From contig NZ_CP011391.1 of assembly GCF_001564455.1 (NCBI RefSeq), positions 1 to 32,000 on the forward strand: a stretch of DNA of 32,000 nt, given 5' to 3'. Positions within the stretch are counted from its first letter, which is position 1. Each line of letters opens with the position of its first letter. Shown here in pieces: positions 10,846 to 17,028 of the stretch. Source of the stretch: Faecalibaculum rodentium. Its GTDB lineage: Bacteria > Bacillota_I > Bacilli_A > Erysipelotrichales > Erysipelotrichaceae. The notes beneath the pieces are model-generated. The model was not told the DNA's origin and did not search any database. It saw only the letters and a list, made by a program, of their open reading frames with translations. Both the position numbers and the translations under genes were made by a program.

Positions 10846-10980
10846 GTGGAAATGATATATTGAATCTGCTGCTGCAATAGCATCTTATGAACCGGGTCAG
10901 ATAGGGAACTAAGCAGCCCTAAGTAATGCTCTGTTATGTGCGGCAGTTTTTTTATACCTTTTACAGCGGGAGGCATTCAG

Positions 10981-11497: not shown

Positions 11498-11529
11498 CGT
11501 TATAATATGTAACGAAAAGGAGGATGCTT

Positions 11530-13260
11530 ATGGCCTACCAGGCATTATACAGAAAATATCGACCAGCGGTCTTCGAGGATATGGCAGGTCAGAAGCAGAT
11601 TGTCCGTACGATTCAGAACGCGATTCAGAACGACAGAATCTCACATGCATATCTGTTTTGCGGTCCCAGGGGAACTGGAAAAACATCCGCTGCCAAAATA
11701 TTTGCCAGAGCGCTCAACTGTACTTCCGATGGATTGAAGCCCTGCGGGCATTGTGAAAACTGTATGGCTGTCGATCATCCGGACATTGTGGAAATTGATG
11801 CTGCTTCCAACAATGGTGTGGAAGAAGCCAGAAATCTTGTTGAACGAGTAAAGTATGCCCCAATGATGGGTAAATACAAAATTTATATAATCGATGAAGT
11901 CCATATGATGACGGCAGGAGCGTTCAATGCTCTTCTAAAAACAATTGAAGAACCTCCGGCTCATGTCGTATTCATTCTCGCAACAACAGAACCTCATAAG
12001 GTATTGCCAACCATTCTGTCCAGATGTCAGAGATTCGACTTTAAAAAGGTCCCTCAGAATGAAATCCGTCAGAGGCTGCTGCAGATTGCAGAGAAGGAAG
12101 GAACAGTACTGGATCAGCAAGCTGCTGAACAGATTTCCCTGCTTTCTGATGGAGGGATGAGAGATGCATTATCTATTCTGGATCAGTGTATTGCATACGA
12201 GCCTGAGCATTTAACAGCTGAAGATATACGAGCTGTGTATGGCGTTGTTTCAGATGCTGACATCAGCGATATTTTCGGCTTATTGCAGCGCGGCCAGGCT
12301 GATCAGCTTATAAATGCCATCAAGACCCTGTATGACAACGGAATGGATCTCGAACGGTTCACTGCTGACCTGATCACACTGGTAAAGGATAGCCTGATTT
12401 ATTCCTGCTCTTCTGAAACTACACTTTTGTCAGAGGAAAGAAAACATTTGCTGCAGGCGTCATTCTCAAAAGCATCCATAGAATTCAGAACCCGTTTCCT
12501 GAAAGAACTCATGGATGTATATCCAAAATATTCCCATGCATCCAGCGTCCTGGATTATCTGGAGGCTGTCCTTCTGAAGTACGTACAACATGAAACAATC
12601 AATTCTGAATATGATTCATCAGTTCCCGTTCAGATACCTGTCAGAAATTTATCGGAAAATATCGGTGAATCAGATTCCAAAACGGCTGGAAGTGTAAATA
12701 AACCTGTCACTGAGAAGCAGAATGTGAAATCAGAATCTGATGTTTCACGTGAAACATCTCTGAAGAAGAAAGCGACACCTGATCCACTCGAAACACCAGA
12801 GTATACGAATGACCAGATTGTCGGTCTTCTTCATACAGCTGATAAATCTTTACGCGAAAAGGATATGTCAGCATGGAAAACCCGTATGACATTCAGTGGC
12901 TCTCTGCAGTCAGGAAAATATGCGAGAGCAGTTGCCAATGCGAAGCTTGCAGCTTCTGGCAGTAACTATATAATCGTATATACTTCAAAACAGATGGAGT
13001 CAGACGCGATCAATGATCTCCAGAAAGCTGAAGGCTTTGAAGATTTCATGGAACTGCTCACAGGGACAAGGAAAGCCGTGATTGCAGTGTCAGCATCCAG
13101 ATATAAAGAAGTACTGGATACATTCAGGGCATGTATGAAATCAGGAACATTCCCTGCAGCCCCGGCCATTCAAACATGTGAAGTAGATGTTGGTCATATG
13201 AAATCTACAGAGGAGGAACTTCGGGTGATGTTTCCAAATCTGAAAATCATAAATGACTGA
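11530..13260 (+). CDS. dnaX: DNA polymerase III subunits gamma/tau
   Basis: The second ATG (11530) is 6 nt after AAGGAGG; the track start 11524 abuts the SD. Walker A GPRGTGKTS, zinc module CGHCENC, DEVHMM, SRC motif (ILSRCQRF). Confidence 0.95.
   Translation: MAYQALYRKYRPAVFEDMAGQKQIVRTIQNAIQNDRISHAYLFCGPRGTGKTSAAKIFARALNCTSDGLKPCGHCENCMAVDHPDIVEIDAASNNGVEEARNLVERVKYAPMMGKYKIYIIDEVHMMTAGAFNALLKTIEEPPAHVVFILATTEPHKVLPTILSRCQRFDFKKVPQNEIRQRLLQIAEKEGTVLDQQAAEQISLLSDGGMRDALSILDQCIAYEPEHLTAEDIRAVYGVVSDADISDIFGLLQRGQADQLINAIKTLYDNGMDLERFTADLITLVKDSLIYSCSSETTLLSEERKHLLQASFSKASIEFRTRFLKELMDVYPKYSHASSVLDYLEAVLLKYVQHETINSEYDSSVPVQIPVRNLSENIGESDSKTAGSVNKPVTEKQNVKSESDVSRETSLKKKATPDPLETPEYTNDQIVGLLHTADKSLREKDMSAWKTRMTFSGSLQSGKYARAVANAKLAASGSNYIIVYTSKQMESDAINDLQKAEGFEDFMELLTGTRKAVIAVSASRYKEVLDTFRACMKSGTFPAAPAIQTCEVDVGHMKSTEEELRVMFPNLKIIND
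12741..12756. promoter_or_regulatory. parS: parS (ParB/Spo0J binding site), perfect consensus
   Basis: TGTTTCACGTGAAACA at 12741-12756 matches the Bacillus-type parS consensus TGTTNCACGTGAAACA at every position. With flanks it forms a 20-bp perfect palindrome GATGTTTCACGTGAAACATC. It lies in-frame in the dnaX linker region (codons DVSRETS). Confidence 0.85.
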
Positions 13261-13271
13261 AAGGAGTAACT

Positions 13272-13865
13272 ATGTATCCTGCCAAATTCGAAAATCTGAT
13301 TGCCGCATTCAGAAGGCTTCCAGGTGTTGGGATGAAAACAGCAGAGCGGTACGCTTTTGAAGCTCTGAATTGGGATGAGGAAACAAGAAAAGAAGTAGAG
13401 AGGAGTCTGCAACAAATATCTGAAATTCATACATGTCGTATTTGTGGAAATCTCTGTGATGAAGATGAATGTGAGTACTGCAAAGATCCAAACCGAACGG
13501 ACCATTTGATCTGCATTGTGCAGTCACCAAAAGATCTTCAGGCCCTTGAGTCAGCCGGGGTCTTCAATGGAAAATATCATGTATTAAATGGAACCATAAA
13601 TATGGCTAAGGGAGTCCTGCCGTCAGATTTAAACATAGATACACTGATTCAACGTATCAATGAAAATATAGATGAGGTGATTCTGGCCACTGAACCCACC
13701 GTTGATGGAGAAACAACGGCATTGTATTTGACAAAACTGCTGCAGGGAAAAGTGAAAGTCACACGATTAGCGAACGGTATTCCTATGGGAGGCCATTTGG
13801 ATTATTCCGATGCAAGAACTCTTCAAAGAGCATTTCAAGGTAGAACCAATGCTCAAAGTGAATAG
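13272..13865 (+). CDS. recR: Recombination protein RecR
   Basis: 197 aa. N-terminal HhH (FRRLPGVGMKTAERYAF), C4 zinc finger (CRICGNLCDEDECEYC), Toprim region. Directly follows dnaX. Confidence 0.95.
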   Translation: MYPAKFENLIAAFRRLPGVGMKTAERYAFEALNWDEETRKEVERSLQQISEIHTCRICGNLCDEDECEYCKDPNRTDHLICIVQSPKDLQALESAGVFNGKYHVLNGTINMAKGVLPSDLNIDTLIQRINENIDEVILATEPTVDGETTALYLTKLLQGKVKVTRLANGIPMGGHLDYSDARTLQRAFQGRTNAQSE

Positions 13866-13875
13866 AAGCAAAAAG

Positions 13876-13904
13876 AGGAGAGCTCATCTGGAACTCTCCT
13901 TTTT
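13876..13904 (+). terminator. Intrinsic terminator after recR
   Basis: AGGAGAGCTC/GAACTCTCCT stem (10 bp, one mismatch), loop ATCTG, followed by TTTT (13901-13904). Confidence 0.75.
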
Positions 13905-14999
13905 CATATGGGCGGATATTATAAAATGGCATACTTTCTGATGAATCATAAGAATAATATATGAGCTTGAGAAAAGACGTCTTTTGATAGTTCTACAGTT
14001 TTACAGCCTTACGGCACCATTAATGGGAGAAAACCTAAGCTACAGAGATGGATTTCAGACTGTTGTTTTATCCTATTATTGTCATAAGAGTAATCACATT
14101 ACATAATCCAAAGAGATATATAAATCATATGAAATGATGGTACCATGAAAAAAGAACGTTATTTTCATATGAATAATTCCTTTAAAGAGTGACCAGACGG
14201 CATAAGAGGCAATCAAGTATAAGCAAATTCGTAAGAATTGTCAGACAGGTATTCTTTCATCTGAAAACAATATGAGTGGAATATGAAACACTCATTATTG
14301 CCTCAGTAAAATCAAATCAGAATAAGACAACGAAACTCACTGAAATATAGGTGTTGTCTTAGATATGAATAGAATATGAAAAGATGCAGCAATAAGACAT
14401 TACACTGTATGATTTATCCTGCAGTATTTGCCAAAATCTTACCAATCATATGAATAAAGTAGGACAGTAAGAAAACTTGACCTGACAGCATTCTGATTCA
14501 ATAGATACCCCTAGATTGAAAAGTTAGATGAATACACTTACAGCAACATTAGTCGGTTTTTTACGAATTAAAATATATGACAAGAATATGAAAATGATGA
14601 ATTCCTAAAATCTAATATGAACAGTGAATATGAATCATATGACATGATGGGAATATTCAGATTCAGATTGCTGTAGATTAGCCCGATCACCATGAATGCT
14701 TCTTTAATATGACTATCGAAGCTGGAAATGGATCCCCAACATACAATTCGTTTATATATGTATGATTTTCTCGATAGTAATCATATGACTTCTGTGGTAT
14801 AGCAGTATTAGTATCTATAGAACTGGACATGAAAGTCATATCTATGAGTCTCCGGTAACAGACAAAAACAAGGGAAAATTCTGAAAATTCTTTGTTCATA
14901 TGATTGCGGATTCCATATGTAGAGATATTCATATAATGTATCTGAATTGCAGAGAATATCGGGCTAAGGCATAATACTCAACTGTCAAGTATCATATGA
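13904..14999 (+). repeat. Dispersed iteron-like array of ATATGA / TCATATGA motifs in ORF-free AT-rich DNA
   Basis: There are 17 plus-strand ATATGA copies. Seven are the palindrome TCATATGA (14125, 14165, 14446, 14635, 14781, 14896, 14992). Three doublets share exact 11-bp phasing (14270/14281, 14363/14374, 14575/14586). A longer variant ATCATATGA[A/C]ATGATGG occurs at 14124 and 14634. Confidence 0.8.
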
Positions 15000-15024
15000 A
15001 ATCATAGAATGTCCGGAAGAGCTA

Positions 15025-15033
15025 TGATATAAT
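15025..15033 (+). promoter_or_regulatory. Extended -10 promoter (TGaTATAAT) for the HTH/coiled-coil gene
   Basis: TGATATAAT at 15025-15033, ~55 nt upstream of the ORF. The last TCATATGA copy (14992-14999) lies just upstream of the expected -35 position. Confidence 0.55.
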
Positions 15034-15088
15034 GCCACCGCAATCCTAAGAAATACGTAAGATGCTGTGATGAAAGGAAGTGATTGGT

Positions 15089-15637
15089 TTGACGGATTCA
15101 GATAAAACGATAGATGTTTTTTATGATATGGACATTGCCCAGATCTGCCAGCACTTCAACAAATCACGGAATACAGTGGATAAAGCAATCGCGAAACTGG
15201 TAAAGGACAATCCTGACAAGGACTGGAAATATAAAAATCCTGAAACCAGACGGATCACCATAAAAGCAGAAGGAGTTGAACGCCTGAGTACATATTTTCG
15301 GAAAGAGAAACATGAAGTCTCTGCAGTGGAAATGGAACTCAGATATGAAAATGAAAAACTCAAAGCTATCATAGATGAAAAAGAGAAAGCATTTTCCCAG
15401 ATAGAAACGCTGTACAATCAAAGACTTCTTCTGGAGCTTGAAAACTCCAAGAAAACATATCTGCTTGAAACTCAGACAAAAGATGAAAAAATATCTGAAC
15501 TGGAGTCTGAGAATCAAAAATTGAAAACACAGTTATCGGATACAGAATCCATTTCTTCGAAATATGAAGAACTAAAAAAAAAGGAAGAAGAGTACAACTC
15601 AAAATCCTTTATTTATCGATTGCTCCACAAGTTTTAG
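15089..15637 (+). CDS. Small HTH plus coiled-coil DNA-binding protein (function unknown; RacA-like or plasmid replication-associated-like architecture)
   Basis: The ORF track gives 15080..15637 with a GTG start. TTG 15089 is better spaced from AAAGGAAG (15073-15080), and ATG 15128 is also possible. N-terminal HTH-like segment DIAQICQHFNKSRNTVDKAIAKL, ~90 aa of E/K/L/Q heptad-rich sequence, short hydrophobic C-terminus SFIYRLLHKF. Confidence 0.7.
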   Translation: MTDSDKTIDVFYDMDIAQICQHFNKSRNTVDKAIAKLVKDNPDKDWKYKNPETRRITIKAEGVERLSTYFRKEKHEVSAVEMELRYENEKLKAIIDEKEKAFSQIETLYNQRLLLELENSKKTYLLETQTKDEKISELESENQKLKTQLSDTESISSKYEELKKKEEEYNSKSFIYRLLHKF

Positions 15638-16203
15638 ACATCAGCATATGAAACTGCCCTTGCCAGCTTGGACGGGGCATTTTTTGTATATTCCAATCCG
15701 ATCTTAGAGAGTATTCTGTTGAATTTCTCAATCCCGTCATGGCTTTCTGTATATTCATATTCAATTTCATAATCCAAATAGTTTCTGTGAATTCCAAATG
15801 CCGTTTCGTCCAGACATAACTCTGCTGACGGGAGATGTAATACGTACCGTTTGGTTTGTGATACAGCAAAGGGCTTCACGGTAAGCGGTATACCATATTG
15901 TTTCAGCCAGCCGAGAATTTCAGGGTCCTGAATATTACGGATGGAATCAACTGGTATCTTCTTTTCCAGTTCAGTCTGTGTAATGGAGTCCCTTCGGATT
16001 TTCAACGTAAATATATGCTGCTCACCAATCGTACGAATGCGCAATGCCCCCAGTTTTCTTACAGATCCCTGATCATCATCAAAATATACATTGGTCTGCA
16101 GAACTGGTTTTCCAAAGTCATATGAATGGAGTATCTGGCAGAACTGCTCTTTGTTTACGAGAATTTTCAGTTCCCGTTCGATTTGATCATACATATTCAT
16201 CAC
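15634..16203 (-). CDS. CYTH-domain protein (triphosphate tunnel metalloenzyme, YjbK-like)
   Basis: N-terminal ExExK signature (IERELKIL) and CYTH-like beta-strand pattern (LRIRTIGEQHIFTLKIR...LDYEIEYEY). The start may be the fourth codon (ATG 16194, 9 nt from AGGTG). Association of CYTH with NAD kinase is also seen in B. subtilis yjbK...ppnKA. Confidence 0.85.
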   Translation of the reverse strand: MMNMYDQIERELKILVNKEQFCQILHSYDFGKPVLQTNVYFDDDQGSVRKLGALRIRTIGEQHIFTLKIRRDSITQTELEKKIPVDSIRNIQDPEILGWLKQYGIPLTVKPFAVSQTKRYVLHLPSAELCLDETAFGIHRNYLDYEIEYEYTESHDGIEKFNRILSKIGLEYTKNAPSKLARAVSYADV

Positions 16204-16257: not shown

Positions 16258-17028
16258 ATGCGCTTTGCTTTGGTAGACCGCGGGGATATCCATTCACAGA
16301 GACTCGCCTGTGAATTGAGAAAGAAACTCGAAGCTATAACCTGGCAGGAAGATGCAGAATATCCTGAGAGAATTTTCTGCATTGGTGGTGATGGGACAAT
16401 GCTCCGTGCAATTCACGAATATATTGACCAGCTTGATACAGTGGCGTTCATTGGAATACATACAGGAACCCTGGGATTCTTCACAGACTTTACAGCAGAT
16501 GAAATGGATGAGATGCTCCAGCTTCTGGCCGGAGATGCAGAATTCGAAGAATGCCGGCTGGTCGAGGCTGTGTTTCCGGAGAAGGATCTGGTCCTCAGAG
16601 CCTTGAATGAAATACGCCTTGAATCCATCACGAAGACGCTTACTCTCGACGTCAGCATAGATGGTGAGTTCTTCGAACGCTCCAATGGATCTGGAATCTG
16701 CGTCAGCACACAGCCTGGAAGCACAGGAATCAACCGGTCATTGAATGGAGCCATTGTAGATGATGGCCTGAGCATCCTTCAGCTTACAGAAATCATGCCA
16801 ATTGCTCATCACAATCACCATACATTACGGAATCCCTATGTCATGAAAGGAAGCCGAACAATAGAACTGAAGACAAAGCCGATGCATGATGTAGTATGTT
16901 CATATGATAATCTGAAATATAAACCTGACGGAGAAACAGGTGTCATCATCCGGCTTTCAAAACAGAAAGTAAGGTTTGTCAGGTACAGGCCCTATTCGTA
17001 TATTCGGCGCCTGAAAAATCTGTACTGA
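16258..17028 (+). CDS. nadK: NAD kinase
   Basis: 256 aa with the GGDGTMLRA motif and an NE/TGxN region (PGSTGINRSLNGA). SD AAGGAAGGG upstream. Confidence 0.93.
   Translation: MRFALVDRGDIHSQRLACELRKKLEAITWQEDAEYPERIFCIGGDGTMLRAIHEYIDQLDTVAFIGIHTGTLGFFTDFTADEMDEMLQLLAGDAEFEECRLVEAVFPEKDLVLRALNEIRLESITKTLTLDVSIDGEFFERSNGSGICVSTQPGSTGINRSLNGAIVDDGLSILQLTEIMPIAHHNHHTLRNPYVMKGSRTIELKTKPMHDVVCSYDNLKYKPDGETGVIIRLSKQKVRFVRYRPYSYIRRLKNLY

Follow-up and report, generated by a model that had tools for sequence, protein, structure and literature searches.

A conserved, helically phased site array between recR and a gene for a predicted winged-helix protein near the chromosomal origin of Faecalibaculum rodentium

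Why should the origin-proximal chromosome of a gut bacterium hold more than a kilobase of AT-rich, gene-poor DNA that is crowded with copies of a single short word? This question is raised by the first 32,000 nt of the Faecalibaculum rodentium chromosome (NZ_CP011391.1, positions 1 to 32,000; the whole of this stretch is referred to as the window), in which a spacer of 1,223 nt separates recR from a downstream gene that we call orfX. The original prediction for this spacer, made from the sequence, drew attention to its many ATATGA hexamers and likened them to plasmid iterons, partition centromeres or large operator arrays acting together with the adjacent gene for a DNA-binding protein. Here, we find that the spacer carries a conserved, helically phased array of protein-type sites on DNA, which is tied in position to both orfX and a parS site. 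Our preferred reading, to which we give a probability of roughly one half, is that the array consists of phased binding sites for the orfX product and forms an origin-proximal docking or centromere-like site together with an autoregulatory operator; we infer orfX as the binder, as well as its membrane attachment and any role in segregation.

A dense and phased array in the recR–orfX spacer

The spacer has the lowest GC content of the window (33.0% compared to 49.1% for the window as a whole), and the abundance of its motif exceeds what its dinucleotide composition would produce: ATATGA occurs 17 times on the + strand against a mean of 2.47 and a maximum of 9 copies in 2,000 dinucleotide-preserving shuffles, and the palindrome TCATATGA occurs 7 times against a mean of 0.16 and a maximum of 2 in the same number of shuffles. 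When all 6-mers were scanned in 500 shuffles, none reached more than 10 copies, and hence shuffled controls fail to reproduce the density of ATATGA. The 17 + strand starts and the seven palindrome starts originally listed all proved to be exact, although the chance expectation given with them, about one ATATGA per strand, was too low by comparison with the ~2.5 copies seen in the shuffles. Three of the copies that had been taken for degenerate ones (13904, 14836 and 14929) are in fact exact TCATAT, i.e. the same hexamer in the opposite orientation; the bias towards the + strand is thus real, but the repeats are not purely of one orientation as had been proposed. Altogether, the array spans 13904..14999 and comprises 20 distinct sites in both orientations, 7 of which are palindromic, and we propose that TCATATGA represents the full site and ATATGA(A) the half-site.

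Exact ATATGA sites start on the + strand at 13959, 14127, 14167, 14270, 14281, 14363, 14374, 14448, 14575, 14586, 14615, 14628, 14637, 14707, 14783, 14898 and 14994. The first two palindromic full sites lie 40 bp from one another (14125..14132 and 14165..14172), followed by those at 14446..14453, 14635-14642, 14781..14788, 14896..14903 and, at the promoter end of the spacer, 14992..14999. Three doublets on the + strand, ATATGAgtgGAATATGAAA (14270..14289), ATATGAataGAATATGAAA (14363..14382) and ATATGAcaaGAATATGAAA (14575..14594), each present two half-sites 11 bp apart (14270/14281, 14363/14374 and 14575/14586) and have in common the 10-mer GAATATGAAA, which is found nowhere else in the window. 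A triplet of + strand sites (14615, 14628 and 14637; 14615..14642) ends in the fourth of the palindromes, and the longer version ATCATATGA[A/C]ATGATGG that had been reported at 14124 and 14634 is likewise present at both positions.

Beyond the number of sites, their spacing is regular. In the window alone, site pairs up to 130 bp apart are coherent at a period of 10.3 bp (R = 0.54, permutation p = 0.0014). The same period emerges from the spacers of 49 related loci, which were collected through an alignment of orfX homologues with one genome per species and reduced to a non-redundant set of 28 spacers with less than 5% common 12-mers: here, centre-to-centre distances peak at 11-12, 21-24, 29-32, 40-43, 51-53 and 61-65 bp, and the Fourier power at 10.25 bp amounts to 370, whereas 1,000 random placements averaged 8.5 and never exceeded 65. 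The exact 11-bp phasing first noticed in the three doublets therefore holds, but it is not confined to them, as site pairs all over the array are phased. Since 10.3 bp is the helical repeat of B-DNA, the sites come to lie on one face of the duplex, and the phasing, together with the palindromic core and the occurrence of sites in either orientation, points to a protein complex on double-stranded DNA as opposed to an RNA element.

It could be argued that the + strand bias of the half-sites and the length of the stretch free of open reading frames (ORFs) speak for transcription of the spacer, as a 5' leader or as a long non-coding RNA, with AUAUGA repeats that would bind or sponge an RNA-binding protein. 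We consider this to be extremely improbable: the spacing period is a property of the B-DNA helix, 7 of the 20 sites are palindromic with both orientations in use, recR ends in a terminator and the sole conserved candidate promoter is located at the 3' end of the spacer. The recR terminator, which had already been noted ahead of the spacer, is visible in the sequence as a hairpin (13876-13900) and a T-run that reaches into the first TCATAT (13876..13905, + strand). Furthermore, Rfam returned no family at gathering score over the spacer, with a single sub-threshold match to SNORD18, a small nucleolar RNA, that we attribute to chance when searching at E <= 1, and the RNA folding energy of the spacer is ordinary (z = -0.58). 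A known non-coding RNA, which the original prediction had wished to see excluded, was rejected on these grounds (Rfam over the window at gathering score and over the spacer at E <= 1, together with RNA folding).

A hidden or decayed gene was also rejected as a candidate. In agreement with the first description, the spacer contains no + strand ORF of 60 residues or more and a sole minus-strand one of 81 residues (14687-14932); the ORFs present are short, their translations are of low complexity, and outside of the promoter block no alignment is obtained with L001, the nearest related locus. A cluster of DnaA boxes or second origin was discarded as well, with zero DnaA boxes in the spacer and a window-wide count at the level of chance.

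Conservation of the array and its association with parS

The related loci represent ~15 genera, covering Faecalibaculum, Dubosiella, Ileibacterium, Holdemanella, Faecalicoccus, Faecalitalea, Floccifex, Catenisphaera, Absicoccus, Allobaculum and unnamed Erysipelotrichaceae. In every locus with enough upstream sequence, recR is followed by an AT-rich spacer (230-1,460 nt), by orfX and by the convergent CYTH gene, and in most of the spacers no 6-mer is more frequent than ATATGA, alongside TATGAA and TCATAT. Counted on both strands of the 28 non-redundant spacers, ATATGA is present 429 times against 73 expected (z = 40), and where variants with a single mismatch are enriched as well (ATAGGA, ATCTGA, ATGTGA and ATACGA), the change is confined to the two central positions. 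Site density reaches 15.5 per kb in the spacers compared to 1-3 per kb in the rest of the loci. The spacer of the window and that of its nearest relative L001, whose orfX is 91% identical, can be aligned over the last ~100 nt only; the spacers are hence unalignable and yet dense in the motif, which indicates selection on motif density and not on the sequence or on the positions of the sites. The comparison of orthologous regions called for by the original prediction thus shows the array recurring beside orfX in most related spacers, even though the spacers themselves do not align.

Given that every locus reaches its highest AT content in the spacer, where the GC content of the window is also lowest, one could view this DNA as having no specific function, being either an AT-rich foreign or decayed remnant or curved promoter-upstream DNA in which an AT-rich word happens to be common. 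Neither the dinucleotide shuffles nor AT-matched control windows attain the observed site density, however, with the latter, few in number, holding 2.1 sites per kb, and the hexamer with its invariant G is kept amid unalignable sequence in genera that range from 28% to 50% GC. With family-wide conservation arguing strongly against it, we judge this explanation to be very unlikely. Sporulation sigma-factor promoter elements were a further candidate. The -35 element of sigma-E resembles TCATATT; this candidate was dropped because of the invariant G of the hexamer and the helical phasing, and because sporulation is not known from most of these genera.

A second conserved feature lies nearby. Within dnaX, 1,125 nt before the array, the window contains a perfect parS 16-mer, TGTTTCACGTGAAACA (12741..12756), that is read as the DnaX codons D-V-S-R-E-T. 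The same 16-mer is found at the same relative position in 48 of the 49 loci, the remaining one (L030) having a single mismatch, and it is placed between -1115 and -1833 nt from the recR stop across L001-L049. Array-type sites accumulate in front of it: in the 300 nt upstream of parS, ATATGA/TCATAT attains 6.2 per kb against 1.7 per kb in other flanks (3.7-fold, 28 loci), this enriched stretch corresponding to the variable C-terminal linker region of dnaX (window 12540-12740), and the hexamer that abuts parS is ATCTGA, TTCTGA or ATATGA in 41 of the 49 loci. Protein-coding constraint (S/Y-D) may explain part of this enrichment around parS.

Full sites are also dispersed through the flanking genes. 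Outside of the arrays we counted 267 copies of TCATATGA in ~720 kb of flanking sequence (8-17 kb for each locus), where 34-82 would be expected from Markov models of order 1-4, and some of these positions are conserved across genera. The window itself has six such copies outside of the spacer and not the four reported initially, those at 8331 and 13194 having been missed. The isolated site at the 3' end of dnaX (13194..13201) has counterparts in many genera, 642-682 nt from the recR stop, and a further isolated site is situated inside the NAD kinase gene (16900..16907). The site within the CYTH gene (16118..16125) falls on the minus-strand codons S-Y-D/E and is conserved across genera at the nucleotide level: among 21 non-redundant loci that keep S-Y, 17 encode it as exactly TCA-TAT, compared to 25% predicted from codon usage (a figure that is uncorrected for kinship), which suggests selection on the DNA word inside this gene.

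The orfX protein, its candidate promoter and its plasmid relatives

The gene downstream of the array, orfX (15089..15637, + strand), starts with TTG and encodes a protein of 182 residues for which a three-part architecture is predicted: a winged helix-turn-helix (wHTH) at approximately residues 14-58, a long helix from 60 to 181 and the C-terminal tail KSFIYRLLHKF. The protein is 98-99% identical to a hypothetical protein of Faecalibaculum rodentium, which assigns the DNA to this species or to one very close to it. Across the family, hardly any change is seen in the first ~80 residues, to which KSRNTVDKA of the second helix belongs; the middle part is of variable length among homologues, and the last 16 residues are again conserved as EEYNSKSFFYRLxHKF, with tail variants of the form KSF(F/I)YRL(T/L)HKF. 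Pfam and NCBIfam contain no family for orfX, giving only sub-threshold helix-turn-helix (HTH) matches over residues 11-40 and coiled-coil noise, and sequence searches of the PDB revealed nothing relevant. An AlphaFold model with a predicted local distance difference test (pLDDT) score of 84 shows helices at 16-23 and 27-40, a beta-hairpin wing at 47-58 and a continuous helix from 60 to 181, for which the pLDDT is 90-96 in the centre. When the N-terminal domain was submitted to Foldseek, it matched Tn916 Xis (probability 0.97) and RacA from its DNA complex (5i44_B; probability 0.98, template modelling (TM) scores 0.51/0.59, root-mean-square deviation 2.6 A over 58 columns), with further matches to the RdfS and Pukovnik excisionases, BldC, GlnR and BmrR. 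On the basis of the model, the N-terminal domain is thus predicted to be a wHTH of the MerR/Xis class, and the long helix to be the central coiled coil that belongs to the architecture of RocS, RicO, RacA and Par. The tail, with a hydrophobic moment of 0.52-0.59 and a net charge of +3, has K-x-F-F-x-R-L in common with the RocS peptide, and KSFFYRLxHKF is accordingly predicted to form a MinD/RocS-like amphipathic helix.

The layout of the promoter end fits autoregulation of orfX. A candidate promoter with a weak -35 (TAGAAT) and an extended -10 (TGaTATAAT, 15025-15033) is located at 15005..15033 on the + strand, and a putative ribosome-binding site, AAGGAAG, leads to the TTG start (15074..15091, + strand), read from the sequence and from the alignment of the N-terminus with homologues. 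The seventh palindrome of the array (14992..14999) stands just upstream of the -35 and forms with it and the extended -10 the sole block of the spacer that can be aligned with L001; TGnTATAAT recurs at the equivalent place in most genera, and in several genera the site or its one-mismatch variant TCATAGGA is found beside or over the ribosome-binding site. These observations are also what would be anticipated if the array were a transcriptional operator and nothing more, through which orfX or another regulator controls orfX, and perhaps neighbouring promoters, with no role in chromosome organisation; proteins with a MerR/Xis-type wHTH are often regulators. Such autoregulation would need few sites near the promoter, not 10-20 phased over 0.4-1.4 kb, and this explanation further leaves unaccounted for the long coiled coil and membrane-type tail of orfX, the plasmid relatives beside Rep3 genes (see below), the conserved parS 1.1 kb away and the sites inside flanking genes, so that we hold it to be somewhat unlikely. 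As a separate observation on this region, a near-motif within the final 30 nt of the spacer, TCATAGGAA, overlaps the orfX Shine-Dalgarno sequence (aaaatCATAGGAAgggg) in many genera, for example in L010, L015, L021, L039 and L041, and an exact TCATATGA is present 8-10 nt before this near-motif in L027, L045 and L046.

Distant relatives of orfX are few. Searching 1.8 billion representative proteins by HMMER with a profile of the N-terminal domain retrieved 33 proteins only; the distant ones are 160-220 residues in length, have the same three-part layout and carry MinD-like tails (GFWDRLFNKGGK, LFQRLFKK, FGLYKKKGK), and those with enough sequence context are encoded on contigs of 3.1-3.6 kb with Rep3 genes, two of which are closed circles and one of which has a Mob gene. 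A tblastn search of PLSDB with orfX and P0138 gave no matches. Upstream of the gene for one of these relatives, P0135 (L054:691-812, with identical sequence in L055 and L056), four direct TATAAC repeats with spacings of 12, 11 and 12 bp occur right before the ribosome-binding site. On L051, a circular Rep3 plasmid of 3.1 kb with the orfX-like P0136, the 22-bp perfect palindrome AGGTAGGTAACATTACCTACCT is found three times (951-972, 1793-1814 and 1911-1932), two of the copies being upstream of the P0136 gene. Finally, L050, a circular plasmid of 3.5 kb encoding Mob_Pre, an orfX-like protein and Rep3, has four iterons of 22-23 bp between the orfX-like gene and rep (2230-2313); as these adjoin the Rep3 gene and stand apart from the orfX-like gene, true iterons and orfX-type repeats are separate elements. 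In at least one plasmid relative, the gene is thus preceded by its own short phased repeats, with palindromes or paired repeats upstream in others, and the chromosomal locus has the appearance of this plasmid arrangement in enlarged form. Two side observations concern plasmids: farther upstream of the P0135 gene, GTTATAAC and GTTATA are found 11 bp apart, and plasmids of Leuconostoc (L058:2066-2557) and Priestia (L059:1850-2560) encode HTH and coiled-coil proteins ending in SKKGFWARLFGGK and NKKGFFARLFGN, which are nearly identical to the RocS membrane-targeting peptide and whose annotations are merely 'hypothetical' and 'MerR family'.

Taken further, the plasmid relatives allow a more specific proposal, which we put forward tentatively and regard as possible but not the probable outcome: that the locus is a domesticated plasmid-type, single-protein partition or anchoring module, in which orfX would be a RocS/Par-like DNA-to-membrane tether with a dense phased centromere of 10-20 TCATATGA sites, coupled to the parS in dnaX as a composite centromere. 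If true, a specific cis-site of high density would be defined here for the first time for a RocS-like tether, and the interplay of such tethers with ParB and SMC loading, whether cooperative or competitive, could be studied in a natural system.

Several results weigh against orfX binding the array as an anchoring site. Two genomes keep orfX with almost no array, namely L002 (Dubosiella muris; spacer of 351 nt with 4 motif copies, L002:7650-8000) and L049 (Firmicutes bacterium M10-2; spacer of 231 nt with 1 copy, L049:7770-8000), and no replacement motif cluster was found within 8 kb in either case. An Allobaculum-like clade (L033, L034, L036 and L040) has few exact ATATGA in long spacers of 1.15-1.33 kb; these spacers are enriched in the variants ATCTGA, ATCAGA and ATCCGA, with the DNA-binding region of orfX nearly unchanged. 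At the protein level, the Foldseek E-values are weak (0.03-0.9), which stems from the small size of the domain (~60 residues), and hhalign comparisons of the orfX family were not significant, either against the RacA DNA-binding domain (E = 0.016, probability 2.8%; the HTHs are in register and R19 of RacA, essential for DNA binding, is aligned to the invariant K32 of orfX) or against a RocS-like Leuconostoc plasmid protein (E = 0.026). DUF536 (PF04394), a segment by which the RocS/pSK1 Par family is recognised and in which three conserved glutamines precede the C-terminal helix, was unmatched in orfX and P0101 in a Pfam scan at E <= 10, the RocS-like Leuconostoc protein giving a weak match (E = 0.01). 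To these points should be added that some of the statistics are inflated because the loci are not phylogenetically independent, and that known chromosomal systems use single sites dispersed over hundreds of kb, as opposed to the dense 1-kb array seen here.

Alternatively, the sites could serve another trans-acting factor encoded elsewhere (a ParB partner, a nucleoid-associated protein or a global regulator, for instance), with the adjacency of orfX being coincidental and owed to the location near the origin. The over-representation of TCATATGA throughout the flanks, the clustering of sites upstream of parS and the two genomes with almost no array would be compatible with this, as would the lack of co-variation between array motif and orfX inside the family, a lack that can be ascribed to both being nearly invariant. 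This alternative nevertheless appears unlikely to us: the array is always directly upstream of orfX in ~15 genera while the rest of the spacer turns over; orfX is the sole predicted sequence-specific DNA-binding protein among the scanned neighbours (dnaX, recR, CYTH, NAD kinase, FtsW/RodA and mutS); and a plasmid relative of orfX has phased repeats before its own gene, with palindromes or paired repeats in others. The notion of a protein-binding repeat array acting with the adjacent DNA-binding gene, as originally proposed, is therefore supported by the phasing, the conserved density and the lack of an RNA signal, and is backed in addition by the predicted architecture of orfX, its plasmid relatives and the conserved parS 1.1 kb away.

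The wider setting of the array is that of an origin-proximal chromosome segment, ~14 kb from dnaA. Upstream of the spacer, Pfam confirmed serS, a tadA-type deaminase gene, dnaX (11524-13260) and recR (13272-13865), and the large ORFs before serS are read as dnaA, dnaN, recF, gyrB and gyrA from their order and sizes; downstream, orfX is followed by the convergent CYTH gene, an NAD kinase gene, an FtsW/RodA gene and mutS (Pfam scan), with a 675-residue ORF after mutS that is read as mutL. The signal recognition particle RNA at 10866-10952 is the sole Rfam match of the window at gathering score. Two further observations can be made on this segment: the gap between dnaX and recR is 11 nt (window 13260-13272) and is free of an intervening ybaB/yaaK gene, dnaX-ybaB-recR being the usual order in Bacillota, and GC content steps from 41-46% at 8.5-18 kb to 51-61% at 19-32 kb (mutS onward), with the minimum in the spacer (32%).

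Comparison with known systems

In the mechanism that we propose for the phased binding of orfX, dimers of the protein would occupy the palindromes and neighbouring molecules would bind cooperatively to half-sites one helical turn apart, so that a large nucleoprotein complex could build ~14 kb from dnaA and 1.1 kb from the conserved parS. The C-terminal tails would attach this complex to the membrane, giving a docking or centromere-like site near the origin that is comparable to those of RicO/ricS, RacA/ram and pSK1 Par; autoregulation of orfX would fall to the site or sites closest to its promoter. The interest of such a system lies in the fact that origin positioning and separation in bacteria without full ParABS, or in which it is dispensable, are still being worked out, and that few tethers of this build are known (RocS, 2019; RicO, a 2026 preprint; pSK1 Par), with RocS lacking a known specific DNA site. 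A family-wide array with an 8-bp palindromic core, 10.3-bp phasing and a nearby parS represents a ready substrate for binding, structural and genetic work, and the connection between a chromosomal locus and small Rep3 plasmids of gut metagenomes gives a hint of how partition modules pass from plasmids into chromosomes. Moreover, there has been hardly any study of the cell biology of Faecalibaculum, Dubosiella, Holdemanella and Allobaculum, all of them prominent gut commensals. Our search of the literature found neither this array nor its motif described, with matches to TCATATGA being primers with NdeI sites only.

Regarding the kinds of repeat array first suggested for this spacer, plasmid iterons form the weakest of the three comparisons: there is no Rep-family protein among the scanned neighbours, and the unit is 6-8 bp and not ~17-22 bp. 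The parC centromere of plasmid R1 consists of ten 11-bp repeats, and Xis and BldC bind head-to-tail on phased direct repeats. The array resembles these in having short repeats one helical turn apart that would support a higher-order complex and, in case of parC, in the position of the repeats upstream of the gene for the binding protein. A type II partition locus (parC/ParR/ParM) was nonetheless rejected as a candidate, since ParR is a ribbon-helix-helix protein working with the actin-like ParM, whereas orfX is a predicted wHTH followed by the convergent CYTH gene, and the window showed no ParM-like gene. Neither a coiled coil nor a membrane tail is present in Xis and BldC, which belong to the fold class of orfX. 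The centromere and operator comparisons remain the closer ones, with the orfX product as the presumed binder.

Closer parallels are offered by RacA, RocS, RicO and pSK1 Par, all of which combine a RacA-like wHTH with a coiled coil and act in DNA positioning or segregation, with RocS, RicO and Par having an additional C-terminal MinD-like helix (PMC11500499; bioRxiv 10.64898/2026.03.06.710092); Par and RocS were compared through the descriptions in PMC11500499 and PMC13042908, together with the RocS-like Leuconostoc plasmid protein. RacA of Bacillus subtilis is the best solved structural match of the orfX DNA-binding domain after Tn916 Xis (5i44), and is similar in the coiled coil that follows its wHTH and in its palindromic, centromere-like ram sites near the origin, some of which are inside genes. 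The ram site is, however, a GC-rich 14-bp palindrome present at 25 dispersed positions, and RacA is sporulation-specific and reaches the membrane via DivIVA and not through an amphipathic helix of its own, as proposed for orfX. RicO of Staphylococcus aureus binds nine 18-bp ricS sites within ~700 kb around oriC, which are interspersed with parS and one of which is upstream of ricO itself (bioRxiv 10.64898/2026.03.06.710092). The association with parS and the site upstream of its own gene are common to both systems, but the ricS sites are non-palindromic, non-repeated and intergenic, each standing singly, whereas the array presented here has a palindromic core of 6-8 bp repeated ~20 times in 1.1 kb, with further copies inside genes.

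RocS of Streptococcus pneumoniae interacts with ParB and ends in the membrane-targeting peptide KKGFFARLFGGK (PMC13042908), which resembles the KSFFYRLxHKF of orfX, although RocS carries DUF536 and orfX gives no match to it. No specific site is known for RocS, which is thought to read DNA topology, and unnamed proteins from Erysipelotrichia fall into the RocS clade in the tree of the RicO authors (bioRxiv 10.64898/2026.03.06.710092). In Par of the Staphylococcus aureus plasmid pSK1, a MerR-type wHTH at the N-terminus is joined within a single protein to a central coiled coil and, at the C-terminus, a MinD/RocS-like stretch (PMC11500499). This is also the layout predicted for orfX, and the likeness extends to the remote relatives of orfX, which are also encoded on small plasmids beside rep genes. 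In contrast to Par, orfX is chromosomal, has no DUF536 match and shows no detectable similarity to the RocS-like plasmid protein. The centromere-like repeats of pSK1 reportedly lie directly upstream of par and are also autoregulatory; the array described here is far larger (~20 sites in 1.1 kb), is built from another motif and sits beside parS. Thus, in their apparent mode of action, the array and orfX together resemble the RacA, RicO, RocS and Par tethers, as well as plasmid centromeres that precede the gene for their own binding protein.

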